From positions 70,528 through 134,527 of the forward strand of contig JADFYJ010000004.1 in assembly GCA_015233115.1 (NCBI GenBank): a stretch of DNA of 64,000 bases, read 5' to 3'. The stretch is from Candidatus Omnitrophota bacterium. GTDB lineage: Bacteria; Omnitrophota; Gorgyraeia; Zapsychrales; Zapsychraceae. This document shows, in pieces, positions 135 to 56,230 of the stretch; positions within the stretch are counted from its first letter, which is position 1, and the number at the start of each line of letters is the position of its first letter. Position numbers and translations under genes: made by a program. The notes below the pieces were generated by a model. That model was given only the letters and a program-made list of their open reading frames with translations. It was not told the origin of the DNA and did no database searches.

Positions 135-172
135 GCCTTTGTGACCTTGTGACCTTGTGACTTTGTGACCGT
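135..172. repeat. Octamer tandem repeat GTGACCTT/GTGACTTT, 4 units, immediately downstream of the MEMO gene stop
   Basis: Direct reading gives gtgaccttgtgaccttgtgactttgtgacc. Confidence 0.8.
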
Positions 173-176
173 ACAT

Positions 177-1010
177 TTATTTAAAAACTGCCGCCATGTA
201 GCCTACAACTTTTGTTTTATCACCCGTAGCGTCGCCGGAGTCGGCGTATTTTAGGAAATCTATTTTATGGATGCCTTGATATTGCGCGTACAAGAGGCCG
301 ATGGTTACGGGCATGAAACCGCAGAGTTCTAATTTTCTGGTTACACAGCCGGTCCATAAATTTTTAACATCAAATTTTTTTACAGTTTCTATGGTGGCAT
401 GGTCCATGGCATTGGCTTCCGCGGCAGGATGATAATGGGACATGTCTGTGCTTAATACCAGTAAAATGTCGGTGCGGGTTTTTAATTTATCAGATAATAA
501 GTGAGCGAATTTATCCAAGACAGACAAGTCTGGCTGGCCGACCAATATGGGAATTATTTTCGCGTCAGGAAAAATTTTTTGAATAAACGGAAGCTCGACC
601 TCTACGGAATGTTCACGGTTAAAAGCCTCTGGAACAAAAGAAGATCCATTCTTTTCATCAATCAAATTTTTAGCCAATTCCAAGTCAACCGGAATAGTAC
701 CTAACGGGGTTTGATACCCGTCAAACAAACCGATGGATATGCCGTCAAAACCTAAATAATGGCTGGGCCCGATGACAATAACAGTTTTGTATTTTCCTAA
801 ACTGGCAGATTTGAAACTATACGCGGCGACCGGCGCGGAGTACATGTACCCGGCGTGAGGGGCAATGAGCATGCGGACAGGTTGAGGATCTGGCGCCACT
901 TGGGCCTGCTTCAAATAACCGTCAATTTCAGCAGAAAGTTCTTTAGGGTCAGCAGGATAAAATTGACCGGCAACGTTGGGGGATTTTATATTTTGATTAG
1001 CATTTACCAT
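177..1010 (-). CDS. MEMO1-family protein (AmmeMemoRadiSam system protein B-like)
   Basis: Translation contains GQFYPADPKEL, IAPHAGYMYSAPVAAYSF, VIVIGPSHY and MSHYH, the Memo signature motifs. I take the start at MVNANQ (ATG 1010..1008) with a GGAGAT RBS 4 nt upstream. The longer ORF to 1130 reads through a palindromic repeat and is unlikely to be real. Confidence 0.75.
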   Translation of the reverse strand: MVNANQNIKSPNVAGQFYPADPKELSAEIDGYLKQAQVAPDPQPVRMLIAPHAGYMYSAPVAAYSFKSASLGKYKTVIVIGPSHYLGFDGISIGLFDGYQTPLGTIPVDLELAKNLIDEKNGSSFVPEAFNREHSVEVELPFIQKIFPDAKIIPILVGQPDLSVLDKFAHLLSDKLKTRTDILLVLSTDMSHYHPAAEANAMDHATIETVKKFDVKNLWTGCVTRKLELCGFMPVTIGLLYAQYQGIHKIDFLKYADSGDATGDKTKVVGYMAAVFK

Positions 1011-1066
1011 GCCGATCTCCAAGGAATAAAATGATAAAAAAACAAGGCAGAAAAGAATAAAATGTC

Positions 1067-1212
1067 GTAGGGGCGATCTCCTGATCGCCCGTGTCAAAAT
1101 TGTCGTTTTGTTACAAAAAATTAAATACATAAATAAACCTAAGAGCGAATATCATTTAAAAACTATAAAAAAACGATACTTTTGTAACGGGCGATCAGGA
1201 GATCGCCCCTAC
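1067..1212. mobile_element. MITE-like unit bounded by inverted 25-nt palindromic repeats (gtaggggcgatctcctgatcgcccg / cgggcgatcaggagatcgcccctac) with an AT-rich core containing aaaaacgatacttttgt
   Basis: The terminal repeats are at 1067..1091 and 1188..1212 in inverted orientation. The unit at 10177..10283 has the same internal motif. Confidence 0.55.
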
Positions 1213-1279
1213 AACAACGACGATAAAATCAGCAAACAACAAATGGGTAACTCACCTAACACAACCTATCACCTATAGC

Positions 1280-2935
1280 CTATTGCCTGTTTAATTGCGG
1301 TCCGGCTTTCACTAATTCCTTAGCTTTCGGATGATCTAAAAAGTTTTCGAAATGGGCTATGAACATTTCGGCTAATTGTTTTGTGGTCGTGTCGTAATTC
1401 ACTTTATCTTCCCAGCAATTGCGAGGGTTTAAAACAGCGGAATCAATGCCGGCAATTTTTTTAGGGATGCGCAGGTTAAAGACCGGCATTACGTCAAATT
1501 CGCCGGAGTCGATCGCTTTATCCAAAGAACCGTCTAATACCGCGTCGATAATGGTACGGGTATCCTTAATCGAAATGCGATGACCCATGCCGTATTTTCC
1601 GCCGATCCAACCAGTATTGACTAAATAAGCCGAAGAACCATGCTTGAGCATTTTTTCATTCAGGATCTCAGCGTATTTAATCGGATGCAGTGATAAAAAC
1701 GCCTGGCCAAAACACGCGGAAAACGCGGACGTTGGCTCCATGATTCCTAACTCAGTCCCTGCCACTTTCGCGGTATATCCGCTTAAAAAGTGATACATGG
1801 CCTGTTCATTGGTCAATTTAGATACCGGAGGCATAATACCAAACGCGTCGCAGGTTAAAAATACGATCTTAGTCGGATGCCCGCCTTTGGATACCGGTTT
1901 TACAATATTGGCGATATGATCAATCGGATAAGACGCGCGAGTGTTTTCGGTTTTTTTATCAGACGCGAAATCAAAATTTCCGTCCTTATCTACGACAACA
2001 TTTTCCAATAAGGCGTTGCGGCGTATCGCATGATAAATATCCGGCTCTTTTTCTTCAGACAAGTTAATGCATTTAGCGTAACAGCCGCCTTCAAAATTAA
2101 ATACCCCTTCATCGTCCCAGCCATGCTCGTCATCGCCGATCAGCAAACGTTTTGGATCTGCCGACAAGGTCGTCTTCCCTGTTCCGGAAAGCCCAAAGAA
2201 TAACGCGGTATCCCCATTTTTTCCCATATTCGCGGAACAATGGAATGAGCCGATTCCTTTGAGCGGCAGAAAATAATTCATCATGGAGAAAATGCCTTTT
2301 TTGATTTCTCCGCCATACCAGGTGCCGCCGATCACAGTGGTGCGTTCTTTAATATTAAACGCGATAAAAACCGGCGAGCGCATATGATGTTTTTCATAAT
2401 CCGGACAATTGATCTTGCAGGCATTCATGACTGTCCAATCCGGTTTAAAATCTTTAAGTTCCGCTTCCGTCGGACGAATAAACATGTTTTTAAAAAAATG
2501 CGCCATCCAGGCCACTTCGGTAATCAACCGCACGCCTAAACGGGTACTGGGATTAGTCCCGCAAAAACCATCAATAACATATAAACGTTTGCCGCTTAAT
2601 TGACGGGTGGACAACCCTTTCACATGTTCCCAATTTTCCAAAGACATTCTTTTATTATCGGAGTTATTCGAAATAGGCAATGCCGCTCCTGATCCCCACC
2701 AAACAAAATCGCGGGAAGTTTCTTCTTCGACTATATATTTATCTTTAGGGGAACGGCCAGTAAATTTTCCGGTATCGACGAGAACAGCGCCGCTTTTAGA
2801 GATGACTGCTTTTTCCGCGCCTTCTAATTTAGGATCAGTTTCATGTTTATAAAGTTCTTCATAAGAAAGATTATGAAAGATTTCTTTGGCTCCGTGAATA
2901 CCTAAATTTTCTAAAGCAGCGTTAATATTGTCCAT
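1280..2935 (-). CDS. pckA: Phosphoenolpyruvate carboxykinase (ATP)
   Basis: 551 aa with [12 protein letters not shown]-loop kinase motif and overall ATP-PEPCK motif layout (e.g. [10 protein letters not shown]). The ORF is intact. Confidence 0.93.
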
Positions 2936-2947: not shown

Positions 2948-3523
2948 TTATATTTCTACTTTGGGAATATTTCCTAAAACTAGATCGATCATGATGCGTT
3001 TTTCGCCTTCGATCTCGAAGCTCATTTCACATTTTTCCGTCTGATCGACCGGATATAAGACCCCTTCAAAAATCTCATTCTTAAAACTCATAAAATGAGA
3101 CATTTCCATATTCATATATCCCAATTGGCAAAGTCCAGACTTAAAATTTCCAGCGATTAGATTGCATAAAGTCCCGCACGCGTCCAGTAATTCATTTTCA
3201 TCGGTTTCGTCAACAGGGTAACCCAATTTATGCAATAACTTCGAAAGATATTCAACTTCAACATATAAAACCATGGTACCAACAGGAATATCTTTATTGG
3301 CCTGTTCTTTACTCACATAAAAATTAATCACAGAGATAAACGTGGTCGTATTAAATTTCTCAAAACTGGTAATCCTCATCCGGCGCATGAATTCGACAAT
3401 CGGGCGGTTCTGTACTATTGGGGCAGTAGATAAATGTATTCCGGCCCGGCGCTCCAGAATCCGTTTCAAGATTTCTGACGCCACTTTCGCCTGAATTGAG
3501 AGTTCGGTTATTTGATTAGACAA
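2948..3523 (-). CDS. CheC/CheX-family chemotaxis phosphatase-like protein
   Basis: 191 aa with the motif DACGTLCNLIAGNF, resembling the CheC/CheX/FliY consensus (D/E-x3-E-x2-N-x3-G). It is followed immediately by a CheY-like receiver gene. Confidence 0.5.
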   Translation of the reverse strand: MSNQITELSIQAKVASEILKRILERRAGIHLSTAPIVQNRPIVEFMRRMRITSFEKFNTTTFISVINFYVSKEQANKDIPVGTMVLYVEVEYLSKLLHKLGYPVDETDENELLDACGTLCNLIAGNFKSGLCQLGYMNMEMSHFMSFKNEIFEGVLYPVDQTEKCEMSFEIEGEKRIMIDLVLGNIPKVEI

Positions 3524-4626: not shown

Positions 4627-4729
4627 TTTCTCATCTCCTTATAATTTATAAATTAAAATGATAATTTTATTTTATCTGAATTAAGTTCTTTAGCAATAAA
4701 AACAACTTAAAAAAAGAATATTTTTATTA

Positions 4730-4813
4730 CGGGCGATCAGGTGATCGCCCCTACGACGGCGAAAATCAAATCGAGAATAATGCTTTTTGTAGGGGCGATC
4801 ACCTGATCGCCCG
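4730..4813. repeat. Pair of 25-nt palindromic repeats in tail-to-tail arrangement (cgggcgatcaggtgatcgcccctac ... gtaggggcgatcacctgatcgcccg) separated by about 34 nt
   Basis: Direct reading shows this. The spacer variant (GGTG/CACC instead of GGAG/CTCC) keeps symmetry between the two copies. Confidence 0.75.
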
Positions 4814-4841
4814 CTTCAAAATTAATATTTTTCAATAAAAT

Positions 4842-5517: not shown

Positions 5518-5560
5518 CGTAACAATGTGACATTGTGACAGTGTGACAGTGTGACAATGA
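5518..5560. repeat. GTGACAGT-family octamer tandem repeat
   Basis: Direct reading gives gtaacaatgtgacattgtgacagtgtgacagtgtgacaatg. Confidence 0.8.
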
Positions 5561-5586
5561 AAAAACAAAAAAGCGTCAATTTTGGC

Positions 5587-5643
5587 GCGGGCGATCCTGC
5601 CTTCGTTAAAACTACGGCAAGGCAAGCAGGAGATCGCCCCTAC
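5587..5643. repeat. Palindromic repeat interrupted by a 30-nt insert that itself forms a hairpin (GCCTT...AAGGC)
   Basis: Direct reading gives cgggcgatc[ctgccttcgttaaaactacggcaaggcaagc]aggagatcgcccctac. Confidence 0.7.
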
Positions 5644-6578: not shown

Positions 6579-6590
6579 GAATTAAAATGT

Positions 6591-6670
6591 TGTTGGTTGA
6601 TGGTTTTTAGTTGTTGGTTGTTAAAAATTATTCATTTTTTCCAAAAACCACAAACCACAAACCAAAAACC
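6591..6670. repeat. Inverted pair of low-complexity repeat blocks (GTTGGTTG... / ...CCACAAACCACAAACC) bracketing an AT-rich spacer
   Basis: Direct reading shows this. The right arm is the reverse complement of the left arm's GGTTTGTGG units. Confidence 0.7.
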
Positions 6671-6686
6671 ATTATTTATATTTTCT

Positions 6687-8580: not shown

Positions 8581-8620
8581 CGCCTATTGCCTATTGCCTA
8601 TTGCCTATCGCCTATTGGCC
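8581..8620. repeat. Heptamer tandem repeat CCTATTG x5
   Basis: Direct reading shows this. It overlaps the 3' end of the plsY ORF. The same family occurs at 1261..1290 and 23148..23200. Confidence 0.8.
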
Positions 8621-10176: not shown

Positions 10177-10283
10177 GTAGGGGCGATCTCCCGATCGCCC
10201 GTAAACAAAATATTCGCTTTGCCATTATCGAAAAAAAGAAAAAACGATACTTTTGTCGCGGGCGATCAGGAGATCGCCCCTAC
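10177..10283. mobile_element. MITE-like unit (107 bp) bounded by inverted 25-nt palindromic repeats
   Basis: The repeats are gtaggggcgatctcccgatcgcccg (10177..10201) and cgggcgatcaggagatcgcccctac (10259..10283). The internal region carries attcgcttt and aaaaacgatacttttgt, shared with other copies. Confidence 0.55.
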
Positions 10284-10289
10284 GACCAT

Positions 10290-10340
10290 CGTCAATCTTG
10301 TCTTCTCTCTTCTCTCTTCTATCGTCCATCGTCTATCGTC
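10290..10340. repeat. Low-complexity tandem repeats (CTCTTCT / ATCGTCT units)
   Basis: Direct reading gives tcttctctcttctctcttctatcgtccatcgtctatcgtctat. Confidence 0.7.
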
Positions 10341-10924
10341 TATTTTATAATCCTGATCCTATCCAACGGCCAATAAATAAATGAGGCTGGGCCGACGATG
10401 TTTTCTACTGGAACATAACCCCAATAACGGCTGTCATGACTGGACTGGCTGTTATCTCCGAGAACAAAAACATGGCCGGATGGAACTTTGACCGCGTTGC
10501 CATTCACGCCATATTGACCCATATCGTAGTAAAAAGTTTTACGGATACGCGGTTCGTCGATAATTTGACCATTGATATAAATAGCGCCATACTTGATTTC
10601 TACTGTTTCACCTTCGAACGCGATCAGACGTTTGATAAAATCACGTTTCGGATCTTCAGGAAATTTAAAAACAATGATATCCCCGCGGTTTAATTTTCCA
10701 TAACCGTGAATGCGCGTTTTAGTAAACGGAATAAGCGGCCCATAGCTCATTTTATTGACCATTAACCGGTCATTAATCAATAACGTCGGGATCATCGAGC
10801 CGCTGGGAATTTTAAACGCCTGGATAAAAAAAGTACGAATAAAAAGCGCCAAAATTAACGCAATGACCGCCGAATCAAACCATTCTTTGCCTTCGGTTTT
10901 AAACCATTGTCTCAAATTGTTCAT
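10340..10924 (-). CDS. lepB: Signal peptidase I
   Basis: SGSMIPTL (catalytic Ser box), GDNSQSSHDSRYWG (box E) and a KR box. Confidence 0.9.
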   Translation of the reverse strand: MNNLRQWFKTEGKEWFDSAVIALILALFIRTFFIQAFKIPSGSMIPTLLINDRLMVNKMSYGPLIPFTKTRIHGYGKLNRGDIIVFKFPEDPKRDFIKRLIAFEGETVEIKYGAIYINGQIIDEPRIRKTFYYDMGQYGVNGNAVKVPSGHVFVLGDNSQSSHDSRYWGYVPVENIVGPASFIYWPLDRIRIIK

Positions 10925-10933: not shown

Positions 10934-12742
10934 TTATAATTTTAATACAGCCAAAAAAGCTTCTTGGGGGATTTCTACGTTTCCGACTTGTTTGAGTTTT
11001 TTCTTTCCTTCTTTTTGTTTCTCCCACAATTTGCGTTTGCGTGAAATATCGCCGCCGTAACATTTGGCGGTTACATCTTTACCAGATGATTTGACCCTGG
11101 CACTAGAAATAATGCGGCCGTCGCAAGTAGCCTGAATTCGTACCTCATATAATTGTTGGGGGATTAGATCTTTTAATTTAGTTACTAACGCTAAACCTTT
11201 TTCATACGCGCTGGTCTTATGCACCAAACAAGAAAAGGCGTCGCACACTTTATCATTGATCATAATATCCAATTTAGAAATCTGCGCCGGCTGATAGCCT
11301 TCAAATTTATAATCGATCGAACCATACCCGCGCGTCAACGATTTGATCTTATCATTAAAATCCACAATAACTTCTGACAGAGGAACATCAAACAATATCC
11401 GCATGCGATCCGAAACATATTCGCTGGTGACAAAATTGCCACGTTTCTTTTTAGCCAATTCCATGACAGAATCCATAAATTCAACCGGCGTCATAATCGT
11501 TACCCGAAGATAAGGCTCTTCGATTGATTTTATATTCGACGAGTCAGGAAGATCGTTGGGACTTTCAATAATCCTTTGTTCCCCATTATTATCAATCACG
11601 CGGCACTGGACGTTTGGTGTCGTCAAAATCAAATTTAAATCATATTCACGCTGAAGCCGTTCCTGCACGATATCCATATGCAGCAACCCTAAAAATCCGC
11701 AGCGAAACCCATTCCCAAAAGATTGGGATGTTTCCGGTTCATAGACGAGACTAGGATCGCTCAAACGCAATTTTTCAATGGCTTCACGCAAAGGCATAAA
11801 ATCTTTCGGATTAACCGGATAAACCCCGCAAAACACCATCGGATTCAAATGACGGTAACCCTCTAATGCCGCGGCAGCCGGACGTTCCGTTTCCGTGATG
11901 GTGTCTCCGACACGCACATTCCTAGGCTCATGAACATTGCAGGTAATATACCCGACTTCTCCGGCGGTTAATTCTTTGACTTTCACATCTTCAGGCTTGC
12001 AAATACCGACTTCTTCCACATTGTGATCTTTACCCATATTCATCATGCGGATACGCATACCTGCTCGAACAGTTCCATTCATCACCCGGATATAAACAAT
12101 GACGCCTTTATAGATGTCGTATTTCATATCAAAAATCAAAGCTTGTAAAGGGGCATCATCGACGCCTGTAGGCGCCGGTAAAAACTCGACAATCTTCTCA
12201 AACAAAGTATCAATGCCGATGCCTTCTTTAGCAGAAACCAGCTGGATATGCGTATCATCAAATCCGAATGCTTCCATGACCTGCAATTTCGCATGGTCAA
12301 TATCGACGCTGGCTACGTCGATCTTATTTAACACCGGCAATATTTCGAGATTGTTATCAATCGCCAAATAATAGTTCGCGACAGTCTGCGATTCCACACC
12401 CTGGGTGGCATCGACTAATAACAGGGCGCCTTCGCACGCTTTGAGTGATTTTTCCACTTCATAAGAAAAATCCACATGCCCGGGCGTATCGATTAAATTA
12501 AAAAGATATGTTTGGCCGTCTTTCGCTTTGTAATTAATGCAGACCGCCGAGGCTTTGATGGTGATCCCGCGTTCCCGCTCAAGATCCATGTCATCTAAGA
12601 GCTGATTTTTAAATTTACGTTCATCAATCGCTCCGGTAAACAATAACAGACGATCTGCCAAAGTCGATTTACCATGGTCGATATGAGCGATAATAGAGAA
12701 ATTGCGAATGAGGGATTTATCGTGCATAAATTTTAATTTCAA
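10934..12742 (-). CDS. lepA: Elongation factor 4 (LepA)
   Basis: 602 aa with GTPase motifs AHIDHGKST, DTPGHVDF and NKID, and the characteristic LepA C-terminal domain. Confidence 0.95.
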   Translation of the reverse strand: MKLKFMHDKSLIRNFSIIAHIDHGKSTLADRLLLFTGAIDERKFKNQLLDDMDLERERGITIKASAVCINYKAKDGQTYLFNLIDTPGHVDFSYEVEKSLKACEGALLLVDATQGVESQTVANYYLAIDNNLEILPVLNKIDVASVDIDHAKLQVMEAFGFDDTHIQLVSAKEGIGIDTLFEKIVEFLPAPTGVDDAPLQALIFDMKYDIYKGVIVYIRVMNGTVRAGMRIRMMNMGKDHNVEEVGICKPEDVKVKELTAGEVGYITCNVHEPRNVRVGDTITETERPAAAALEGYRHLNPMVFCGVYPVNPKDFMPLREAIEKLRLSDPSLVYEPETSQSFGNGFRCGFLGLLHMDIVQERLQREYDLNLILTTPNVQCRVIDNNGEQRIIESPNDLPDSSNIKSIEEPYLRVTIMTPVEFMDSVMELAKKKRGNFVTSEYVSDRMRILFDVPLSEVIVDFNDKIKSLTRGYGSIDYKFEGYQPAQISKLDIMINDKVCDAFSCLVHKTSAYEKGLALVTKLKDLIPQQLYEVRIQATCDGRIISSARVKSSGKDVTAKCYGGDISRKRKLWEKQKEGKKKLKQVGNVEIPQEAFLAVLKL

Positions 12743-12758
12743 AATAATATTTTTTTTC

Positions 12759-12783
12759 GTAGGGGCGATCTCCTGATCGCCCG
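12759..12783. repeat. Solo copy of the 25-nt palindromic repeat gtaggggcgatctcctgatcgcccg
   Basis: Direct reading shows this. It lies between the lepA start and the cmk stop. Confidence 0.8.
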
Positions 12784-12800
12784 TAACAAAATAATCGCTT

Positions 12801-13470: not shown

Positions 13471-13560
13471 CAGGTTGTTGGTTGTTGGTTGTTGGTTGTT
13501 GGTTGTTGGTTGTTGGTTGTTGGTTATTGATTTTAAATCTTTTTATGCAGTTGTTAACCA
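13471..13560. repeat. GGTTGTT heptamer tandem repeat (about 8 units) with a downstream inverted partner (aaccaaaaactaaaaacc)
   Basis: Direct reading shows this. Confidence 0.8.
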
Positions 13561-13590
13561 AAAACTAAAAACCATAAACCTTTAAATTTG

Positions 13591-14459: not shown

Positions 14460-15476
14460 TCAGATCGTCCGGTCCACAGCGTCAGCTATGCGTTTCAGAT
14501 CTTTAATTAAGTTTTCGAAATTTTTCGGCACTAACGATTGCGGCCCGTCAGAAAGAGCCTCTTCCGGATTATCATGCACTTCCACTAATAAACCATCGCA
14601 TCCAGCTGCCACCGCGGCTTTAGAGACACTGTTGATTAAACCCCATCGTCCGGTCGCGTGGCTTGGATCGACCAAAATCGGCAAATGCGATAATTGCTTA
14701 ACCAGCGGCACAGCATTAATATCCAAAGTATTTCTGGTCATGGTTTCAAAAGTGCGGATGCCCCTTTCGCACAGCATGACATTAAAATTCCCATTAGCTA
14801 AAATATATTCGGCAGACATAAGCCATTCTTTAACCGTTGCGCTGATCCCTCTTTTTAAGATGACAGGTTTGTACGTCGCTCCGACGCCTTTTAACAAAGA
14901 AAAATTTTGCATGTTACGTGCGCCGATTTGCAGGACATCAACGTATTTTGAAACCAAATCGATATCGCGCGAATCCATGACTTCCGTCACTGTTGCCATG
15001 TCAAATTCCTGTCCGACTTCTTTTAAGTATTTCAATCCTTCTTCGCCTAAACCTTGAAAATCATACGGCGACGTACGCGGTTTAAACGCGCCCCCGCGTA
15101 AAATATTACAGCCAGCGGCCTTGACGAACTTAGCAATGCGGCGTAGTCCTTCATAATTTTCAACCGCGCAAGGCCCGGCGATCATGGCGATTTTGGTGCC
15201 GCCGATTTCAATGCCGTCTTTAATTTTAATAACAGTATTTTTAGGTTGAAATTCGCGTGACACTAATTTATACGGTGCTAAAACCGGAATGACTTGTTCG
15301 ACACCTGGAAACACTTCCAATGGCGTGACCCGCAACACATCTTCAGGCCCGATTAAGCCAATAACAGTTTTTTCCACGCCGCGGGATATATTCGCTTTCA
15401 ACCCCAGCTTTTGCGCCTTGTCAACGATATGACTAATTTGCTCTTCAGTAGCGCCGGATTTTAATACTATGATCAT
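14460..15476 (-). CDS. aroF: 3-deoxy-7-phosphoheptulonate (DAHP) synthase, class I-beta with N-terminal regulatory domain
   Basis: GPCAVEN, KPRTSPYDFQGLG and KdsA/AroG-like (beta/alpha)8 motifs, with an N-terminal ~70 aa ferredoxin-like extension. Confidence 0.85.
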   Translation of the reverse strand: MIIVLKSGATEEQISHIVDKAQKLGLKANISRGVEKTVIGLIGPEDVLRVTPLEVFPGVEQVIPVLAPYKLVSREFQPKNTVIKIKDGIEIGGTKIAMIAGPCAVENYEGLRRIAKFVKAAGCNILRGGAFKPRTSPYDFQGLGEEGLKYLKEVGQEFDMATVTEVMDSRDIDLVSKYVDVLQIGARNMQNFSLLKGVGATYKPVILKRGISATVKEWLMSAEYILANGNFNVMLCERGIRTFETMTRNTLDINAVPLVKQLSHLPILVDPSHATGRWGLINSVSKAAVAAGCDGLLVEVHDNPEEALSDGPQSLVPKNFENLIKDLKRIADAVDRTI

Positions 15477-16561: not shown

Positions 16562-16636
16562 AATTATATGTGATATTGTTGATAGTTTTTGGTTTTTGGT
16601 TTTTGGTTTTTTACTCTGTACTCTGTACTTTCTTTA

Positions 16637-17695
16637 TTAAGCCGGATATGATCCTAAAATTTTCAAATAATTACACATCGCTTCTAATTGTGATAAAGCT
16701 TTTTTTACTTTGGCGTCTTCACGGTGGCCTTCAAAATCCACGAAAAATAAATATTCCCAGGCTTTACGTTTGGACGGCCGCGACTCAATTTTCGTCATAT
16801 TAATTTTATTTTTCGAAAACGGAGTTAACATGGCGTGCAAGGCGCCCACATTATCTTTAATCGAAAACAGGATTGATGTCCGATCCCGTCCGGTTGCTGG
16901 CGCGTCCTCATTGGCGATCACCAGAAATCTCGTCGTATTATGCGCGATATCCTGGATGTTCGGACATAAAACATTGAGACCTTGCAATTCGCCGAGAAAC
17001 TGTGAGCCAATGGCAGCCGCGTGTTTATCTTTTAACGCGTATTGAGCCGCCTCCGTAGTTGAGCCGACTGTAATTTGCTCAGCATAGCTCATATTTTTGT
17101 ATAACCATATACGACATTGGCCGAATACCTGCGGATGAGAATAAATCTTTTTAATCGACTTAATATCCACGGCTTTGGACAACAAATTCTGCGAAATTTT
17201 TAACATGGTTTGACTGCAAATTTTTAATTCCGAATCAGCTAGCAAATCAAACGTATGCGTAACCGCACCTTCGACTGAATTTTCAATCGGCACCACCCCA
17301 TAATCGCACTCTTCATGTTCCACAGCCGTAAACACTTCAAAGATGCTGGCATACGGCGCATATCCAACCATAGTACCAAATTTTTTATTTGCTGCTAAAT
17401 GCGTAAATGACCCTTCATTGCCGAAATAAGCGATCTTTAATTTTTTTTCCAGCGCTAAAGAACTCGACATGATCTCGCGGTAAACTGCTTCAAACGCTTC
17501 GTTGGACATCGGGCCCTTATTCAAGCGTTTAATCCGCTCGTAAACCGCGCGTTCCCGTGCCGGCGAATAAATACTGCATTGATGTTCGGCCTTGTATTGA
17601 CCAACAGCTTTGCTGACTTCAGCCCGGGCGTTTAATAGCGCGACCAGTTTTTGGTCGAGCAAATCAATTTTTTTCCGCAAGTCTGGTAAGTTCAT
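16637..17695 (-). CDS. pheA: Bifunctional chorismate mutase / prephenate dehydratase
   Basis: N-terminal CM (LRKKIDLLDQKLVALLNARAE), PDT domain (TRF) and C-terminal ACT domain. Confidence 0.9.
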   Translation of the reverse strand: MNLPDLRKKIDLLDQKLVALLNARAEVSKAVGQYKAEHQCSIYSPARERAVYERIKRLNKGPMSNEAFEAVYREIMSSSLALEKKLKIAYFGNEGSFTHLAANKKFGTMVGYAPYASIFEVFTAVEHEECDYGVVPIENSVEGAVTHTFDLLADSELKICSQTMLKISQNLLSKAVDIKSIKKIYSHPQVFGQCRIWLYKNMSYAEQITVGSTTEAAQYALKDKHAAAIGSQFLGELQGLNVLCPNIQDIAHNTTRFLVIANEDAPATGRDRTSILFSIKDNVGALHAMLTPFSKNKINMTKIESRPSKRKAWEYLFFVDFEGHREDAKVKKALSQLEAMCNYLKILGSYPA

Positions 17696-17775
17696 ATATT
17701 AATCCTTTTAAAAACGTGACAATGTAACAGTGAGACAAAACAAAAATCAAAAAAACCAAAACGACAATTTTGTAC

Positions 17776-17956
17776 CGGGAGGTCAGGAGACCTCCCCTAC
17801 AACAGCATTAATCATTTTTAAACGACATTTCGCGCTACTCGCAGGTGCTTCCAACACTACGCGGACATTACGTCCTTGGTCGCGCTGCTCGCAGGTGCTT
17901 CCAGCACTACGCGGACATTACGTCCTTGGTCGTAGGGGCGATCTCCCGATCGCCCG
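17776..17956. repeat. Composite repeat: variant palindrome cgggaggtcaggagacctcccctac, two exact 50-bp tandem units, and the canonical palindrome gtaggggcgatctcccgatcgcccg
   Basis: Tandem units are at 17831..17880 and 17881..17930 (2 mismatches). The variant palindrome at 17776..17800 carries compensatory changes GCGATC>GAGGTC and GATCGC>GACCTC. Confidence 0.8.
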
Positions 17957-17958
17957 CA

Positions 17959-19804: not shown

Positions 19805-19842
19805 ATTAAAAACCGTGACAGTGTGACAGTGTTACATTTTTT

Positions 19843-20598: not shown

Positions 20599-20684
20599 CT
20601 TAAATCCTCCTGTAATCTGTTTTTATAATTTTAAAGTAACATAGAAAAAACAATTGATAAAAAACTCATAACAGCTTAATAAAG

Positions 20685-20898
20685 CGACAACGTAACCGAG
20701 TGACCGAATAGCAAAGGACAACAAAAAAGAATTAGAACAAAAACAATACACAAAATTAAAAACAAAGGCCTAAATAACAAAAATAATAATGCTGATATTT
20801 TTTTAAATTTTTTTAGTTGTTGGCTTTTAGTTTTTGATCTTTCGCTTTCGCTTTTTCTTTTACTCTGTCACTCTGTTACTCGGTTACTCGGTTACTCT
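20685..20898. repeat. Inverted pair of GTAACCGAG/GTGACCGA-type repeat blocks bracketing an AT-rich spacer of about 150 bp
   Basis: The left arm is ~20685..20712 (gacaacgtaaccgagtgaccgaatagc). The right arm is ~20860..20898 (tactctgtcactctgttactcggttactcggttactctgtcact), which is the reverse complement. Confidence 0.7.
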
Positions 20899-20908
20899 GT
20901 CACTTTTT

Positions 20909-23147: not shown

Positions 23148-23200
23148 TCCCTATCGCCTATTGCCTATCACCTATTGCCTTATTTATGGCGTTTCCCAAT
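23148..23200. repeat. CCTATYG heptamer tandem repeat downstream of the ssb stop
   Basis: Direct reading gives cctatcgcctattgcctatcacctattgcc. Confidence 0.75.
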
Positions 23201-24424: not shown

Positions 24425-24665
24425 TCCTAAAAAAGTGACCGAGTAACAGAGTAACCATGTAACAAAGTTAAAAAACGATTTTTTAAAAACACCAAAAGCT
24501 AAAAAAAATAAAATAATTTCCAATACCGATTTATTAGTTTAACAAAAAAATACAAAATAATTAACTATTTTGTTTCTCGTTTTTTGCTTTTGCTTTTTCT
24601 CAACATTCAATTTTTATTTACCCGCTTTTACTCTGTCACACTGTTACTCGGTTACTCGGTTACTA
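24425..24665. repeat. Inverted pair of GTAACAGAG/GTAACCGAG-type repeat blocks bracketing an AT-rich spacer of about 170 bp
   Basis: The left arm is 24425..24460 (gtgaccgagtaacagagtaaccatgtaacaaagt). The right arm is 24628..24665 (actctgtcacactgttactcggttactcggttact). Confidence 0.7.
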
Positions 24666-33224: not shown

Positions 33225-33235
33225 TAACCAATCTC

Positions 33236-35177: not shown

Positions 35178-35208
35178 GACAGCGTCACCACATGCTACAT
35201 GCTACATA

Positions 35209-36405
35209 CTATCTATTAAGAGCTGCTTTGAATTTTTTAGTTAAAAGCGGAACCACTTCGAACAAGTCCCCTACAATACCAAAATCCGCGACTGTGAAAA
35301 TTGGCGCATCCGGATCTTTATTAATCGCGATGATAGTTTCAGATGATTGCATGCCAACCAAATGCTGAATCTGACCTGAAATACCGCACGCAATATACAC
35401 TTTAGGACAAACTGTTTTTCCGGTCTGGCCAACCTGGTGCGAATAAGGCATCCAGCCGCTGTCAACAGCCGCGCGGGATGACCCCACAGCACCGCCTAAC
35501 ACTTGCGCTAATTCTTCGAGAATAGCAAAATTTTCCGGGCCCTTCATGCCGCGTCCGCCGGACACAATGATATCCGCTTCCGCGATATTCACTGTGGCTG
35601 TCACTTCTTCAACAATATCTAAAATTTTAGTACGCGAAGTTAATAACGTGCGGTCAACAGTTTCTTTAATGACTTTACCGGTGCGTGATTTATTAACAAC
35701 CGCAGCCTTAAACACTTTATGCCGGACTGTGGCCATTTGCGGACGATGATTTTTGCTTAAAATCGTGGCCATGATGTTCCCGCCGAAGGCCGGACGGGTT
35801 TGCATTAAAAATCCTTCTTTAGGATCAATATCCAAAGCAGTACAATCCGCAGTCAAGCCGGTGTGTAATTTTACCGCCACCCGGGAAACCAGGGAGCGGC
35901 CTAACACTGTCGCGCCGCAGAGAAAAATTTCTGGGCGGTATTTACGGATCACATTGACTAAAACTTTGGTATAAGCTTCATCAATAAAATTTTCTAATTC
36001 CGAAGCATCAACAATATAAACATTGTCAGCGCCGAGGTGAATCAATTCCTCTGCACAACCTTGAATATTATGACCTAGAACCACGCAGGATAATTCCACT
36101 CCGCGTTTATCCGCCAATTCGCGGCCTTTTCCTAATAATTCAAAAACCACAGACTGAATCTTGCCTTTTTTCTGCTCACCAAAAACCCATACGCCTTTGT
36201 ACTGTTCCAAATTCGGCGTACGACTGTTTTCACGTTTTAATTCAATCGCGTGAAATTTGCATGAATCCACGCAAGCTCCGCACAATGTGCATTTGTCAAA
36301 ATCAATCACTGCTTTTTTATCCGCCATAGTCAAAGCACAGAACGGACACACCTTTGTGCAGATTGTACATCCTGTACATTTATCTTTAATAATCTCTATT
36401 CCCAT
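35209..36405 (-). CDS. etfA: Electron transfer flavoprotein alpha subunit with N-terminal 2x[4Fe-4S] ferredoxin domain
   Basis: The N-terminus has two Cys clusters (CTGCTICTKVCPFCA...CTLCGACVDSCKFHA). The C-terminal FAD region has SGQIQHLVGMQSSETIIAINKDPDAPIF. Confidence 0.85.
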   Translation of the reverse strand: MGIEIIKDKCTGCTICTKVCPFCALTMADKKAVIDFDKCTLCGACVDSCKFHAIELKRENSRTPNLEQYKGVWVFGEQKKGKIQSVVFELLGKGRELADKRGVELSCVVLGHNIQGCAEELIHLGADNVYIVDASELENFIDEAYTKVLVNVIRKYRPEIFLCGATVLGRSLVSRVAVKLHTGLTADCTALDIDPKEGFLMQTRPAFGGNIMATILSKNHRPQMATVRHKVFKAAVVNKSRTGKVIKETVDRTLLTSRTKILDIVEEVTATVNIAEADIIVSGGRGMKGPENFAILEELAQVLGGAVGSSRAAVDSGWMPYSHQVGQTGKTVCPKVYIACGISGQIQHLVGMQSSETIIAINKDPDAPIFTVADFGIVGDLFEVVPLLTKKFKAALNR

Positions 36406-38351: not shown

Positions 38352-38383
38352 AAAAAACCTCCTGTGGGTTAAAAAAATACGCC

Positions 38384-38436: not shown

Positions 38437-38644
38437 ATTATATCTTCGCATTCATTTTGAAACCGCGTGCCCATACCCAAGGTTAGCGTTTAAACCGAAT
38501 CACCGAGCGAGTTCAGCTCCGCTTCGGAGCTGCTGTTTGAGCGAATGATTTGGTTTAAATGCAAACCGTCCAACCGCGCGCTTTATTAAAAACCGCACCA
38601 ATAGTAACACATCAAAAATAATTTACAAAATATTTTTTTATGAT

Positions 38645-39884: not shown

Positions 39885-39925
39885 AAGCATGTAGCATATA
39901 GCATGTTGCATGTAGCAAGAAAATG
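39885..39925. repeat. CATGTAGCA/TAGCATG tandem repeats
   Basis: Direct reading gives catgtagcatatagcatgttgcatgtagcaag. Confidence 0.7.
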
Positions 39926-43901: not shown

Positions 43902-43921
43902 AATTTAATAAATGATTTGTC

Positions 43922-44066
43922 GTAGGGGCGATCTCCCGATCGCCCGCTTACAAGTTATTCGCTTTTTAATTCGATCAAAAAAACAAAAAATAAAAAACCT
44001 AAAAAAACCTGAAATGTTAAATTTATAAATCTTTAATAGTGCGGGCGATCAGGAGATCGCCCCTAC
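43922..44066. mobile_element. MITE-like unit (145 bp) bounded by inverted palindromic repeats, inserted between oppC and oppD
   Basis: Terminal repeats are gtaggggcgatctcccgatcgcccg (43922..43946) and cgggcgatcaggagatcgcccctac (44042..44066). It carries the internal attcgcttt motif. Confidence 0.55.
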
Positions 44067-44086
44067 AACCAAAACGCTATCTCTTA

Positions 44087-50222: not shown

Positions 50223-50440
50223 TAAAAGTATGTAGTATGTGGTATGTCGTATGTAGTAAAAAAATTAAAAAAACGAATAATTTATTTACTGTATAAACGC
50301 CAACTCGCATCCAAGAAAATATTTGGTCTTTTTGTCTTATTAAATTTTCTTTTTGATTCTATATTTTTATACTTATTGCTTTTTCATTTTGTTTTTTCCA
50401 CATACCACATACGACATACTACATACCACACTAACAACAT
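50223..50440. repeat. Inverted pair of GTATGTRGTATG repeat blocks bracketing an AT-rich spacer of about 135 bp
   Basis: The left arm is 50223..50262 (gtatgtagtatgtggtatgtcgtatgtagta). The right arm is 50398..50440 (cataccacatacgacatactacataccacac), the reverse complement. The right arm overlaps the pgk 3' end. Confidence 0.75.
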
Positions 50441-51648: not shown

Positions 51649-51679
51649 GAATACCTGCCTTTATTTATAATTTTGATAG

Positions 51680-51755
51680 TAACAGTGTAACAGAGTAACA
51701 GAGTAACAGAGTAACAGAGTAACAGAGTAACAGAGTAACAAAGTAAAAAGCATAA
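51680..51755. repeat. GTAACAGA octamer tandem repeat, about 9 units
   Basis: Direct reading gives gtaacagtgtaacagagtaacagagtaacagagtaacagagtaacagagtaacagagtaacaaagtaaaaag. Confidence 0.85.
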
Positions 51756-51956
51756 AACAACAATTGATTAGAAAACGCCATGGCGTACCACAAGCCCATA
51801 TCTATAAAAATCAATGTATTATATATAAGTGAAGCGTTTTGTCAATATATCTAGAAATGGTGTCAGGCCTCGACCTGAAACGGCTTGTTCGAAATGAAAA
51901 ATCAGCGCCGATTATATACCGGCCGACAAAACACAGTCGAGTTCAGACACCTGTCA

Positions 51957-53040
<1,084 letters not shown>

Positions 53041-53048
53041 ACCATAAT

Positions 53049-53672: not shown

Positions 53673-54718
53673 ACTACATCAATGAGCTGTTTATTTTGTT
53701 TAATCCATTCCACAATCTTCGCTGCCCCATCTTTGGGATTAACCCGAGGAGACCAGCCAAGGGTTGAAGATATCTTTTTAATATCCGAAACATAAATCTT
53801 CTGATCAAACCGCCGCCAATCCTCAAATTTCAGATCAACTTTATGCCCCGTGATCTGTTCAAGAATGCTGATCAATTCCAAAAGAGATAAAGTGTTTTCT
53901 TTGCCACCGCCGACATTAAATACTCCGAATTTTAAGTCGGAATCAATAAATTTCTGATACGCTTCAACCAGATCACCTACCCAAAGAACATCCCGCACCT
54001 GTTTTCCGCTTCCATAAATCGTGATTGGTTTTTTTTGCAAAAACCTAATCGCAAACCACGCTAGCCAGCCCTGATCTTCAAAGCCAAACTGCCGGGTTCC
54101 GTATATGCAACTCATACGAAAGACTGCGGTTTTAATGCCATAAGTATGCGCGAAATCCTGAACATATAAATCGCCGGCTAATTTAGAAACCCCGTAAGGT
54201 GTATGCCCGGTCTGATCAACGGATAAATTTTCATCAATGCCGGCAATAGAAGTAAAATCATAGCGCTGTTCCTTCTCGACAATTTCAAACCTATTCACAT
54301 TATCCCCGTAAACTTTATTTGTGGAACAATAAATCAGAACGCCTTCCGGTGAATAGTTTTTCATGCATTCCAAAACATTTAACGTGCCCCAGGCATTAAT
54401 CGAAAAATCTTCCTGCGGATCATTAAGCGAAAATTTCACCCCAGGCTGGCCAGCCGTATGAATAACGATCGAAGGTTTATATTTCTTAAAACACTCCTGC
54501 AGATCATTGATATGCCGAATATCTTTTCGAAGCAAAACGACATTAGGATATTGTTTCAAATATTCCCAATTGTATTCGACTGTTTTCTTTTCCGAACGAA
54601 AAATGCGGGAGCGCATCAAATTATCATAAACAATGACTGTGCCTTTTTGTTGGCGGGCAAAATACTCCGCGCAATGCGACCCCACCATCCCCGCTCCGCC
54701 GGTGATTAGTATATTCAT
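53669..54718 (-). CDS. NAD-dependent sugar-nucleotide epimerase/dehydratase (CDP-paratose 2-epimerase-like)
   Basis: MNILITGGAGMVGSH Rossmann and YGVSKLAGD catalytic YxxxK. Confidence 0.8.
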   Translation of the reverse strand: MNILITGGAGMVGSHCAEYFARQQKGTVIVYDNLMRSRIFRSEKKTVEYNWEYLKQYPNVVLLRKDIRHINDLQECFKKYKPSIVIHTAGQPGVKFSLNDPQEDFSINAWGTLNVLECMKNYSPEGVLIYCSTNKVYGDNVNRFEIVEKEQRYDFTSIAGIDENLSVDQTGHTPYGVSKLAGDLYVQDFAHTYGIKTAVFRMSCIYGTRQFGFEDQGWLAWFAIRFLQKKPITIYGSGKQVRDVLWVGDLVEAYQKFIDSDLKFGVFNVGGGKENTLSLLELISILEQITGHKVDLKFEDWRRFDQKIYVSDIKKISSTLGWSPRVNPKDGAAKIVEWIKQNKQLIDVV

Positions 54719-54722
54719 AAGT

Positions 54723-55085
54723 TTTTACCTCCAATAAAAGCGTGACAGTGTAACAGTGTGACAGTGTGACAATGTGAAAAACTAAAAATGATTAATAATA
54801 AACAATGAAAAAAATGTAACAAAACGACAATGTGACAATGTAAAAAATGGCGGCGAAACAATACGACAGAGTAACATTGTAAAAAATTTAAAAAATCCAG
54901 TAAAACCTAAAAAAGCATTAAAATAATTTATAAAAATTAATACAGAAAATTTCCTCACCTATCGAGTATCTATATTCTATGTCCTATTTCCAACCCCATT
55001 ACTTTTGCCAATCACTTCTCTACATGCCATTTCAGTATCGAATTTTCACTGCACATTGTCACACTGTCACATTGTTACATTGTCA
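54723..55085. repeat. Inverted pair of GTGACAGT/GTGACAAT repeat blocks bracketing an AT-rich spacer of about 280 bp
   Basis: The left arm is 54723..54880 (gtgacagtgtaacagtgtgacagtgtgacaatg ... gacaatgtgacaatg). The right arm is 55035..55085 (cattgtcacactgtcacattgttacattgtcacg). Confidence 0.75.
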
Positions 55086-56099
55086 CGTTTTTCCATGAGT
55101 CCCATAAAGTTCGCGTTCTACTTTTTGCATATCCGCGTCGACCATCATTTTCACTAATTGCTTAAAATTGACCTTAGGTTTCCACTTTAATATCTTGTTC
55201 GCTTTGGACGCGTCTCCTAACAAAAAATCCACTTCAGTCGGCCGGAAATATCTGGGATCAATTTCAACATGTTTTTTCCAATTTAACCCCGCGCATGAAA
55301 AAGCTTCTTCCAAAAACTCCTTCACAGAATGAGTCTCTCCGGTCGCGATCACATAATCATCCGGTTTATTCTGCTGGAGCATCTTCCACATGGCTTCCAC
55401 ATAATCGCCGGCAAAACCCCAATCCCTTTTCGCGTCTAAATTACCCAAAAACAATTTATCCTGGATCCCATGTTTGATTTTAGCTAAAGCGATCGTAATC
55501 TTACGGGTCACAAAAGTCTCACCGCGACGGGGAGATTCATGATTGAATAAAATGCCGTTACACGCGAACATTTTATATGCTTCGCGATAATTGACCGTCA
55601 TCCAATATGAATACACTTTTGCCGCCGCGTAAGGACTGCGCGGGTAAAATGGCGTGTTTTCATTTTGAGCTTTTTTCGAAGCATTGCCAAACATCTCTGA
55701 GCTGGACGCCTGATAAAATTTCGTCTTAATCCCTGTCTCGCGGATCGCTTCCAACAAACGGGTCGTGCCTAATCCTGTGATTTCTCCCGTATATTCCGGA
55801 ATATCAAAGCTTACCCTAACATGACTTTGCGCGGCTAAATTATAAATCTCATCCGGTTTAACAGTTTTGATGATCTGATTCAAAGAACTCGCATCATTCA
55901 AATCACCGTATATCAAACGCAAACGGACTGCTTTTTCATGCGGATCCTGGTAAAGATGATCAATCCGCACCGTATTAAACGTACTCGCCCTCCGGATCAA
56001 ACCATAAACTTCATATCCCTTATCCAAAAGAAATTCACCTAAATAAGAACCATCCTGACCAGTAATCCCAGTGATCAATGCTTTTTTCTTTTGAGCCAT
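55083..56099 (-). CDS. gmd: GDP-mannose 4,6-dehydratase
   Basis: [21 protein letters not shown] signature. YAAAKVY catalytic motif. Confidence 0.9.
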
Positions 56100-56134
56100 A
56101 AAAAGTCCTCAATATAGTGACAGATCTCACTAAA

Positions 56135-56230
56135 ATTTATTGATGGTTGATAGTTCATGGTTTTTGGTTTTTGGAAAAAACGAATAATTTCACCAACCAA
56201 CAACTAAAAACCAACAACCAATAACTTTAT
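56135..56230. repeat. Inverted pair of GGTTTTTGG / CCAACAACTAAAAACCAACAACC repeat blocks
   Basis: Direct reading shows this. Confidence 0.7.

Follow-up and report, generated by a model that had tools for sequence, protein, structure and literature searches.

This report concerns 64,000 nucleotides of contig JADFYJ010000004.1 (hereafter the window), from a Candidatus Omnitrophota bacterium, and the tandem arrays of heptamers and octamers that lie between its genes. The arrays are confined to spacers, and where two of them face each other as paired arms they are reverse-complementary, belong to the same family or subfamily, and have similar copy numbers. Our tentative interpretation is that they are hairpin-forming elements of the STRR (short tandemly repeated repetitive) or long simple sequence repeat (SSR) class, sitting at the junctions of co-directional genes and acting as transcribed intercistronic structures. 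Elements of this kind have been published before; what is new here is the presence of several unrelated repeat families in one genome.

Tandem arrays in the intergenic spacers

The array census was made over the 64-kb window with Tandem Repeats Finder (TRF; period 6 to 9, at least 2.5 copies), and all 34 spacers were inspected for arms in transcript orientation. The census yielded 34 arrays, or ~5.3 per 10 kb, of which 26 are mostly intergenic, with spacers making up 9.29% of the bases (binomial p=1.3e-20). The repeats are thus not equally common inside genes, in keeping with the first-pass annotation, which had described them as a feature of spacers. Two of the eight arrays scored as coding, 5522-5556 and 52896-52934, sit in mis-called N-terminal extensions of open reading frames (ORFs) and belong to the 5' untranslated region (5'UTR); the remaining six are weak and A-rich, with TRF scores of 30 to 36. 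The array units have periods of 7 and 8 and are present in 2.6 to 8.6 copies with 76 to 100% matches. At least six unrelated repeat families occur within this one genome, and they are dispersed, family A being found in 10 spacers, B in 5, D in 3, and E in 2. No GGG or CCC run is present in any of 23 arrays, and a G-quadruplex (G4) reading was rejected on that ground. No Rfam family matched in the window spacers, and our literature searches returned nothing about repeats of this kind in Omnitrophota or about the octamers GTCACCTT and GTGACAAG.

All of the blocks listed by the first-pass annotation are present in TRF as period-7 or period-8 arrays, at the positions it gave or a few bases away. 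Its statement that nearly every spacer is bracketed by inverted blocks was too strong: eight of the 34 spacers hold an inverted pair of one family, one is mixed, 10 have a single arm, and 15 have no array. The CCTATTG blocks (1265-1288, 8582-8617, and 23150-23180) and the GTGACCTT block (139-170) stand alone, as single arms that have no inverted counterpart within the spacer, and the TAGCATG blocks at 35190-35211 and 39886-39917, which are indeed mutually inverted, lie 4.7 kb apart in different spacers. The distance between paired arms, put earlier at 80 to 280 bp, measures 18 to 274 nt, and the DNA enclosed is AT-rich.

Pairing and predicted folding of the arms

Same-family pairing was judged by a family-based permutation test and arm similarity by matrices of defined arms. 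In the nine spacers with a G-rich as well as a C-rich block, the two are of the same family in eight (permutation p=0.008); the idea that arms in one spacer always come from one k-mer family therefore stands for those eight and fails at 16585-16629, where GTACAGA is found beside AAAACCA. The copy numbers of the two arms are equal within 0.5 unit in six of the eight pairs. Arms are exchangeable between spacers of one family or subfamily; a clear fit to its own partner is seen for A3 (GTGACAAT/GTGACAGT) alone. The unit variants of the two arms mirror each other plainly in A3 and not at all in family B, so the arms match at the family or subfamily level only. The 5' arms of A1 and A2 match at 38/39 nt, which points to some spread or conversion between spacers.

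Folding was assessed as the RNAfold minimum free energy (MFE) against dinucleotide shuffles. The strongest departure is seen for A1 (20680-20906; MFE -76.9 kcal/mol, z -9.5), followed by A2 (24421-24668; MFE -74.4 kcal/mol, z -7.9), A3 (54738-55090; MFE -102.5 kcal/mol, z -7.5), and C1 (50222-50434; MFE -56.1 kcal/mol, z -7.0). The family B values are smaller, at -36.5 kcal/mol (z -4.4) for B3, -25.0 kcal/mol (z -3.0) for B1, and -16.0 kcal/mol (z -1.8) for B2, and spacers without pairs have z values of -1.7 to +2.5. The two arms are thus able to pair into long stems, as the first-pass annotation had proposed, and in families A and C the entire spacer, beyond the arms, is a quasi-palindrome of up to 353 nt. 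The left half of these spacers is A/G-rich and the right half T/C-rich; the symmetry amounts to 0.61 to 0.78 identity at the outer arms and fades toward the center, and there are nested inner arrays, e.g., (AAAGCG)n at 20839-20854 and (AAAAGC)n at 24582-24597.

Arms that bracket genes, with pairing between the 5'UTR and 3'UTR of one unit, were also considered and rejected as an arrangement, since about eight other cases do not fit. The complementary arms 39886-39917 and 35190-35211 flank glgC and the acyl-CoA dehydrogenase/etfBA genes, and the complementary arms 16585-16611 and 13556-13580 flank hisC to tyrA, a possible fit. In these two cases only, arms that flank gene clusters could bring together the two ends, 5' and 3', of a single long transcript.

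Strand polarity and expression signals

All eight pairs have the G-rich arm first, after a stop codon, and the C-rich arm second, before the next start. Since the G-then-C order is identical on both strands of a palindrome, the polarity of pairs is uninformative on which strand matters. The single arms do bear on that question, and counted together with the mixed spacer they are polarized as well, with G exceeding C on the sense strand in post-stop arms and C exceeding G in pre-start arms (12/12), and because all genes share one strand, polarity in the window is confounded with the replication strand. Adjacent inverted pairs in metagenome contigs have the purine-core arm first (R..Y) in 15 cases and Y..R in 2, among the matches listed. 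Post-stop arrays there are of the purine type on the sense strand by 50:20, and pre-start arrays show no bias (22:17), again among the matches listed and with ORF calls that are crude in the pre-start set.

A perfect 12/12 sigma-70 promoter, TTGACA-16-TATAAT, lies at 51845-51818 on the minus strand, ~160 nt upstream of pgk. It is found in a single-arm spacer, upstream of the array (TTACTCTG)x8.6, which places this array in the pgk 5'UTR. The promoter-containing loop pictured by the first-pass annotation is not borne out, since promoter-like sigma-70 matches are no commoner than in shuffles (22 vs 16.8+-3.6; 13 vs 11.5+-3.2) and the family B loops are only 18 to 26 nt long in three of four cases. 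These three loops are too short for a promoter, and so the hairpins concerned would be intercistronic on read-through RNA.

A run of T4 to T6 follows the 3' arm in eight of the nine family A, C, and E arms and is itself followed by a normal Shine-Dalgarno (SD) sequence; family B arms have no T-run, single arms of the other families keep the T-run without a stem, and A-runs precede some 5' arms. The RNAfold stems are 30 to 120 bp long and AU-rich, with loops of 18 to 270 nt. Intrinsic terminators have a short GC-rich stem of ~5 to 14 bp, a loop of 3 to 8 nt, and a U-tract directly 3', and stems and loops of the sizes seen here lie outside that geometry; a terminator scan did not call the paired hairpins as terminators.

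Four of the five family B 3' arms adjoin start codons without an SD sequence. The SD-less starts at 6578, 13469, 16561, and 52889 (possibly also 48988) have CA-rich AACAACC/CCAAAAA leaders, and most other genes have an SD sequence; the anti-SD duplex energy is +1.9 kcal/mol or higher at the four family B starts, compared to a median of -4.4 kcal/mol for other genes. Arrays had also been credited with donating the last codons of proteins, which is correct for plsY and also for pckA, in both cases together with the TAG stop, but not for pgk or fcl. At pgk the array begins directly after the stop codon and supplies no codons, and the supposed N-terminal extension of fcl results from an ORF called from a TTG, whereas the gene truly begins with the ATG at 52889.

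Comparison with the sister species and other Omnitrophota

Relatives were taken from a Pgk-based scan of species-representative genomes, which gave 80 Pgk-centered loci (numbered with the prefix L) and assigned the window to Candidatus Omnitrophota. The closest match, L001 (isolate nDJH6bin14, Candidatus Omnitrophota), has a Pgk with 93% amino-acid identity. The exact TpiA sequence is found on one 153-kb source contig at NCBI only, with the next relative 87% identical, and exact-protein look-ups for cmk, tpiA, and yebC returned no other sample of the species on record. Between 40 and 62 kb the window and L001 are syntenic throughout, and none of the window's arrays is present in the syntenic region of L001. 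The junction between the gene at 56240-57541 and gmd measures 140 nt in the window and 15 nt in L001; the corresponding lengths are 364 and 2 nt from gmd to the next gene, ~155 and 35 nt before fcl, 308 and ~61 nt from fcl to pgk, and 223 and 88 nt from pgk to tpiA. With the arrays absent and the junctions tight in L001, the elements appear to be recent, dispensable additions to operon-tight junctions. L001 has a dispersed intergenic repeat of its own (GGTATTTAAGCGGACGTAGATAATTCGAGCGGGCACGG), present in both orientations at 11230-11290, 15190-15460, and 17340-17500, and it occupies junctions that are short in the window.

Most of the 80 Pgk-centered loci have 0 to 1 arrays per 10 kb (at least 3 copies). 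The layout of stop, array, complementary array, and start is found with other k-mers in L035, L053, L066, L027, and L041, and also in L057, L063, L009, and L019; some of the Omnitrophota loci with the paired layout run C-arm first, and each related genome uses different k-mers. Judged from such sequence comparisons, the arrays turn over fast.

Recurrence in metagenomes, Acidobacteriota, and viruses

The family A unit consists of GTNAC plus three bases, and metagenomes were scanned with a pattern of five such units. GTNAC period-8 arrays are found in at least 120 metagenome contigs that range in GC from 0.26 to 0.75. The pairs among them form near-perfect hairpins with stems of 30 to 100 bp, and the high-GC contigs lack a U-tract. 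The same architecture recurs across phyla. Viral contigs, which served as a control, have octamer arrays with almost no inverted pairs, and this argues that pairing is not an automatic by-product of arrays. The unit GTCACCTT / AAGGTGAC recurs in many unrelated high-GC contigs, e.g., L084, L095, L103, L152, L178, L190, and L197; its C-rich strand resembles the anti-SD tail (…TCACCT…) and its G-rich strand an SD sequence (AAGGTGA), which may be coincidence.

The L190 contig is from Acidobacteriota, and it has two syntenic relatives, L201 and L202, that are ~94% DNA-identical to each other. In all three the slot downstream of ykuD holds a long hairpin, and the sequences of these hairpins are unrelated: octamer arrays in L190, a 290-nt unique palindrome in L201, and a 70-nt hairpin in L202, each followed by a conserved TATAAT region. 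At the histidine-kinase/response-regulator junction, L190 is without an array, L201 has one arm, and L202 has an inverted pair. A ~210-nt hairpin of nested hexamer arrays follows alr in L190 only and is absent in L201 and L202. Near relatives compared in this way show that a tight operon junction can gain such a hairpin within species-level divergence, which bears on how operon transcripts become segmented. Two hairpins in L201, at ~3050-3290 and 11782-12199, share a terminal repeat, GAGGGTGTTGAAAA…TTTTCAACACCCTC, that is like those of MITEs (miniature inverted-repeat transposable elements).

Interpretation and alternative explanations

We propose, with some reserve, that the elements act as transcribed intercistronic structures. 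The arrays would originate and lengthen in situ through replication slippage, inverted copying (fold-back or template switch) would turn a single arm into a pair, and selection would confine arrays to harmless places. Several arrays lie in ancestral operon junctions or downstream of a consensus promoter, and on this basis we infer that they are transcribed together with their neighbors. On read-through RNA the arms would close into a stem of 30 to 120 bp, with intercistronic RNA punctuation as the most likely consequence. Long double-stranded RNA (dsRNA) stems are RNase III substrates and 3'-exonuclease blocks, and would thus uncouple the stability and expression of the flanking cistrons. In family B the CA-rich 3' arm would be the SD-less translation leader of the downstream gene, and its pairing with the G/U arm 5 to 22 nt past the upstream stop would gate or couple translation.

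The first-pass annotation had suggested a process rather than a single mobile element, and this suggestion, of a process or class, holds up: the interiors are non-homologous (43% column identity), unrelated k-mers are used elsewhere, and one junction of related genomes offers a series from no array through a single arm to a pair. Several unrelated, non-G4 k-mers have the same architecture and polarity, which suggests that complementarity and position matter, not sequence.

Several observations weigh against a role as intercistronic structures or fail to strengthen it. More than half of the array-bearing spacers have one arm only, and so pairing cannot be the sole reason that arrays exist. The arrays are absent from the sister species, so that any function is dispensable. 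The sense strand folds better than the antisense strand in 19 cases and worse in 11, with 3 ties, and there are 209 G-U pairs in sense compared to 185 in antisense, a sense bias that is confounded in the window with strand mutation bias because all genes are on one strand. Finally, more than slippage is needed, as slippage alone gives no spread, yet the same families, with the A1 and A2 5' arms alike at 38/39 nt, are found at many unlinked spacers.

A far-reaching version of the proposal would be a cross-phylum, sequence-independent operon punctuation, in which self-growing palindromic microsatellites of fixed purine-arm-first polarity are made and kept up by a dedicated process of expansion and mirroring, dependent on transcription and dsRNA, and serve as RNase III-cleaved insulators, some of them also as SD-less leaders gated from upstream. 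We regard this version as improbable.

It is conceivable, if on balance unlikely, that the elements are neutral or selfish by-products. Slippage-prone k-mers would expand where allowed, template switching at quasi-palindromes would mirror them, and purifying selection alone would set position and polarity, a G-poor pre-start arm avoiding spurious SD sequences or starts and C-poor post-stop units carrying stops. The post-stop units do contain TAG, TGA, or TAA; the arrays turn over very fast and are dispensable, their k-mers are peculiar to each lineage, and the complementarity is essentially Watson-Crick, with no clear RNA-strand signal. Heptamers are also the commonest long SSR in bacteria, according to Mrazek 2007 as cited in PMC4679880. 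What speaks for maintenance is the combination of matched arm lengths and strict same-family pairing despite fast turnover, and purely neutral growth also sits poorly with four genes that depend on a family B arm as their sole leader, with the extreme density of ~5.3 arrays per 10 kb (at least 2.5 copies) compared to 0 to 1 (at least 3 copies) in most relatives' loci, and with viral arrays that do not form pairs.

Quite unlikely, in our estimate, are mobile units of the MITE type or like repetitive extragenic palindromes (REPs) and bacterial interspersed mosaic elements (BIMEs), with the k-mer arrays as terminal inverted repeats, a transposase elsewhere, and single arms as decayed copies. The inverted arms do flank 18 to 274 nt of AT-rich non-coding DNA in the manner of a MITE, the same families recur in many spacers (A in 10, B in 5), the A1 and A2 5' arms are nearly identical (38/39 nt), and relative to L001 the elements look like insertions into tight junctions. 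The genome also hosts another dispersed palindromic family, GGGGCGATC..GATCGCCCC, and the L201 hairpin has a MITE-like terminal inverted repeat that is repeated elsewhere in its locus. A MITE as the sole explanation is rejected on the alignment of A1, A2, A3, and two single arms, in which the arrays alone align and the interiors are non-homologous (43% column identity). No target-site duplication was seen on inspection of the flanks, which are AT-rich and lack an empty site in any sufficiently close relative; copies vary in the length of their arms and in their unit variants; a separate transposase would be required for each of at least six unrelated families; each related genome has different k-mers; and the series of none, single arm, and pair points to local growth.

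Insulating terminators are an improbable alternative, in which stem and T-run would stop read-through, while transcripts from a promoter in the loop would carry only the 3' arm and escape. The T4-T6 runs after eight of the nine family A, C, and E 3' arms and the A-runs before some 5' arms are features that such terminators would have, the purine-to-pyrimidine polarity mirrors the order of A-tract, stem, and U-tract, the A3 loop encloses a 9/12 promoter-like site (TTTACT-17-TACAAT), and pairs are found just past stop codons in metagenome contigs and in Xanthomonas. Against these stand promoter-like matches that do not exceed shuffles, the lack of a T-run in family B and of room for a promoter in three of its four loops (18 to 26 nt), and single 3' arms that bear the same T-run with no stem. 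The canonical rpoD terminator already lies directly before A2, high-GC examples have no U-tract, stems of 30 to 120 bp with loops of up to 270 nt are outside the known intrinsic-terminator geometry, and the insertions are inside ancestral operons.

That the arrays serve as binding sites for a protein that recognizes specific DNA or RNA sequences, e.g., at the palindromic GTNAC core that family A repeats every 8 nt, with the inverted blocks looping or coating the spacer, seems highly improbable. In family A the unit is GTRAC with a purine linker or GTYAC with a pyrimidine one, and GTNAC period-8 arrays are present in at least 120 metagenome contigs, a recurrence that is partly circular because the scan pattern required GTNAC. 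At least six unrelated families here, and others in each relative, would require many factors, and a period of 7 to 8 is out of step with the helical repeat of DNA. Low-complexity sequence arisen by chance, or an artefact of assembly, can be dismissed, although several metagenome matches are at contig ends and the source is a metagenome-assembled genome sampled once, since the intergenic enrichment (p=1e-20) and fold z values down to -9.5 are accompanied by arrays of 20 to 70 nt that are contig-internal and flanked by unique genes, and by the same architecture in independent assemblies.

Description of the individual elements

The window has a GC content of ~0.41, and nearly all of its genes are on the minus strand. 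Housekeeping genes are well represented (pckA, plsY, cmk, tyrA, hisC, pheA, ruvC, yebC, ssb, rpoD, dnaG, smc, etfA, glgC, tpiA, pgk, fcl, and gmd), and RNase P RNA and two tRNAs are also encoded. All elements described below are on the minus strand.

A1 (20684..20908) is a 227-nt quasi-palindrome that extends from the 3' end of the RNase P RNA; it comprises a G-type arm (20856-20904), the inner (AAAGCG) array (20839-20854), and a C-type arm (20684-20708), and is followed by ~90 nt of promoter-like sequence and then yebC. A2 (24435..24664) is a giant hairpin behind the canonical rpoD terminator, with its G-type arm at 24628-24664, inner (AAAAGC) array at 24582-24597, and C-type arm at 24435-24466, after which come TTTTTT, an SD sequence, and a start codon. 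A3 (54742..55086) belongs to the 353-nt gmd-to-epimerase spacer; its G-type arm (55052-55086) overlaps the gmd stop, its C-type arm lies at 54742-54777, and there are extra inner C-type blocks at 54815-54843 and 54858-80. C1 (50227..50430), the hairpin of the pgk-tpiA spacer, has a G-type arm (GTATGTG x4.7) at 50398-50430 and a C-type arm (CCACATA x4.6) at 50227-50258.

In family B, the G-type 5' arm of B1 (GGTTTTTGG/GGTTTGTGG; 6641..6671) starts 15 nt past the upstream stop, and its AACAACC-like C-type 3' arm (6589..6622) ends 11 nt before the GTG start of pfkB, with no SD sequence. The B2 5' arm, of the G type (GGTTTAT/GGTTTTT x3.6; 13556..13580), starts 11 nt past the tyrA stop, and the 3' arm, (AACAACC)x8 at 13473..13529, adjoins the cmk ATG (…AACCTGT ATG), again without an SD sequence. 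B3 (52896..53044) has a G-type arm at 53008-53044 that starts 5 nt past the upstream stop and a C-type arm at 52896-52934 that adjoins the true fcl ATG (52889), also with no SD sequence. B4 (56140..56225), upstream of gmd, consists of a G-type arm at 56194-56225 and a C-type arm at 56140-56174. In the mixed spacer (16585..16629), the G-type (AGTACAG)x2.6 is directly followed by the C-type family B array (AAAACCA)x3.9; the two do not pair, and no SD sequence precedes hisC.

Four single arms of family A are of the C type. The first (TGTCACAC x4.4; 5522..5556) lies in a 5'UTR and is followed by TTTTT, the SD sequence AAAGGA, and ATG, so that the gene at 4842 has its start near 5497, behind this SD sequence. 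The others are TGTCTCACTGTTACATTGTCAC at 17716..17737, followed by GTTTTT and an SD sequence; an arm at 19815..19836 in the 38-nt junction upstream of ruvC; and the pgk 5'UTR array at 51678..51746, downstream of the consensus promoter. Family D is represented by G-type single arms only: AGGCAATAGGCTATAGGTGATAGG at 1265..1288, which gives pckA its last codons and TAG stop; (GGCAATA)x5 at 8582..8617, overlapping the last codons and stop of plsY; and an arm at 23150..23180 after the ssb stop. Family E has a G-type arm (GTAGCAT x3) at 35190..35211, at the etfA stop, and its complement 4.7 kb upstream, a C-type arm (ATGCTAC x4.6) at 39886..39917 in the 5' region of glgC, with TTTT and an SD sequence behind it. 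A further single array at 139..170, (GTGACCTT)x4 on the plus strand and AAGGTCAC in sense, fills a 45-nt stop-to-start gap, and a G-type compound array at 10301..10343, ACGATAG x3 then AAGAGAG x3, follows a stop and is followed by a REP-like terminator hairpin.

Other repeats and features of the window

A REP-like palindrome, GTAGGGGCGATC-N4-GATCGCCCG, contains GATC, is often followed by ACAAAAGTATCGTTTTTTT, and is present in both orientations at 1131-1279, 4627-4841, 5580-5639, 10209-10339, 12743-12800, 17696-17958, 35051-35208, and 43902-44086. Inverted pairs of it in two spacers have z values of -9.9 and -9.2 and a BIME-like arrangement. Directly after tRNA-Val and tRNA-Met, at 22458-22605 and 22680-22823, there is a ~110-nt GC-rich structured element (core GCAGATGCGACGAATAGGAGCATC) with no Rfam match; each copy ends in a duplicate of the last 12 or more nt of the respective tRNA, and the element may be a small one directed at the 3' ends of tRNAs.

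In a repeated element found at 21628-21731 and 51649-51956, the gene upstream terminates in GGTGTCTGA, as does the gene ending at 56240, and the spacer closes with TTTCAGGT(C/T)GAGG(C/T)CTGACACCATTT. GGTGTC pairs with GACACC in this element, which would place the stop codon within a long-range stem. Two tandem copies of a 50-bp GC-rich unit (GACCAAGGACGTAATGTCCGCGTAGTGCTGGAAGCACCTGCGAGCAGCGC) and, at a distance of 20 kb, a related one are found (17830-17932 and 38352-38644), and a similar string, …GGACATTACGTCCTCGG…, is found in L001 at 15190-15460. The 371-nt "spacer" at 33225-33595 contains an uncalled small ORF (MSYQDLMTIEEVADYLRVKKRTVYDWLKKEKIPALKTVGQWRFQKDKIDLWLEASLVTVK) whose predicted product resembles, by eye, an excisionase or MerR-type helix-turn-helix protein.

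Comparison with known systems

Among the long simple repeats of bacteria, arrays of heptamers and octamers are the most common, and STRR sequences have been known since 1990. To our knowledge, paired arrays have been surveyed in detail only once, by Rehm and coworkers in Xanthomonas. The GGGAATC heptamers of that genus are 89 to 93% intergenic and form 70 to 75 convergent inverted pairs per genome, which can fold into stem-loops; within 50 bp past a stop the G-rich strand is the coding one, within 50 bp ahead of a start it is the non-coding one, and the arrays can overlap stop codons, lie mostly between co-directional genes, and vary in length between related species (Rehm et al. 2015, PMC4692102). 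The eight window pairs (18 to 274 nt apart) are like these in being opposite-strand arrays of one unit, convergent and close, and they share the polarity (8/8 pairs and 12/12 single or mixed arms). Rehm et al. favored G4 formation and noted a Nostoc counterpart, GGGGAYT (PMC4692102). Xanthomonas has a single G4-capable family in each genome; in the window there are at least six unrelated families, with no GGG or CCC in any of 23 arrays. The window also has octamers, nested inner arrays, and whole-spacer quasi-palindromes of up to 353 nt, and the phylum differs.

Dispersed 7-bp tandem repeats in spacers, capable of forming hairpins, are common to the window and to the STRR sequences of cyanobacteria, which Vioque in 1997 reportedly found inside RNase P RNA as well. 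The cyanobacterial repeats are described as 7-bp tandem repeats in spacers that form hairpins between co-transcribed genes, e.g., hupS-hupL, with proposed roles in transcript stability, translational coupling, or termination (PMC2670836). The cyanobacterial literature, as represented in that source, differs in giving a few fixed heptamers in heterocystous cyanobacteria only, and the systematic bracketing, polarity rule, and multi-family nesting of the window do not figure in its STRR passages. With convergent heptamer pairs on record for Xanthomonas (PMC4692102) and STRR hairpins for cyanobacteria (PMC2670836), the term "uncharacterized" used by the first-pass annotation does not apply.

In Haemophilus influenzae, the (ATCTTTC)n repeats in the 5'UTR of hmw1A and hmw2A form a long hairpin with a complementary G-rich arm, and this hairpin is cut by RNase III; the hmw1A hairpin sets expression, and both hairpin and transcription are needed for changes in repeat number (Rapun-Araiz et al. 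2025, PMC12721329). The window arrays are likewise predicted to form a long hairpin between a repeat arm and a complementary arm (z down to -9.5). The hmw hairpin differs in belonging to a single phase-variable virulence locus, in having a right arm that is not a tandem array, and in running pyrimidine arm first, whereas the window elements are at housekeeping gene junctions. TAACTGA direct repeats in marine Beggiatoaceae, cyanobacteria, and Bacteroidetes lie a few nucleotides upstream of SD-poor starts (MacGregor 2015, PMC4679880). These repeats, which are associated with housekeeping genes and with a scarcity of canonical ribosome-binding sites, recall the family B 3' arms that replace the SD sequence in the window, but they comprise one heptamer that is almost never inverted (one indirect repeat).

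The window elements also resemble REP/BIME, enterobacterial repetitive intergenic consensus (ERIC), and Correia-type sequences and MITEs in being dispersed, intergenic or at operon junctions, and able to form RNA hairpins, in overlapping stops, and in differing between close relatives. Those elements have a conserved full-length consensus, and MITEs have target-site duplications, whereas the window elements share the k-mer only and have unrelated interiors. Their value lies in the multiple non-G4 families that follow the same rules, which argues for structure over sequence, and they supply compact natural test cases, e.g., the 91-nt B1 hairpin adjoining an SD-less start.

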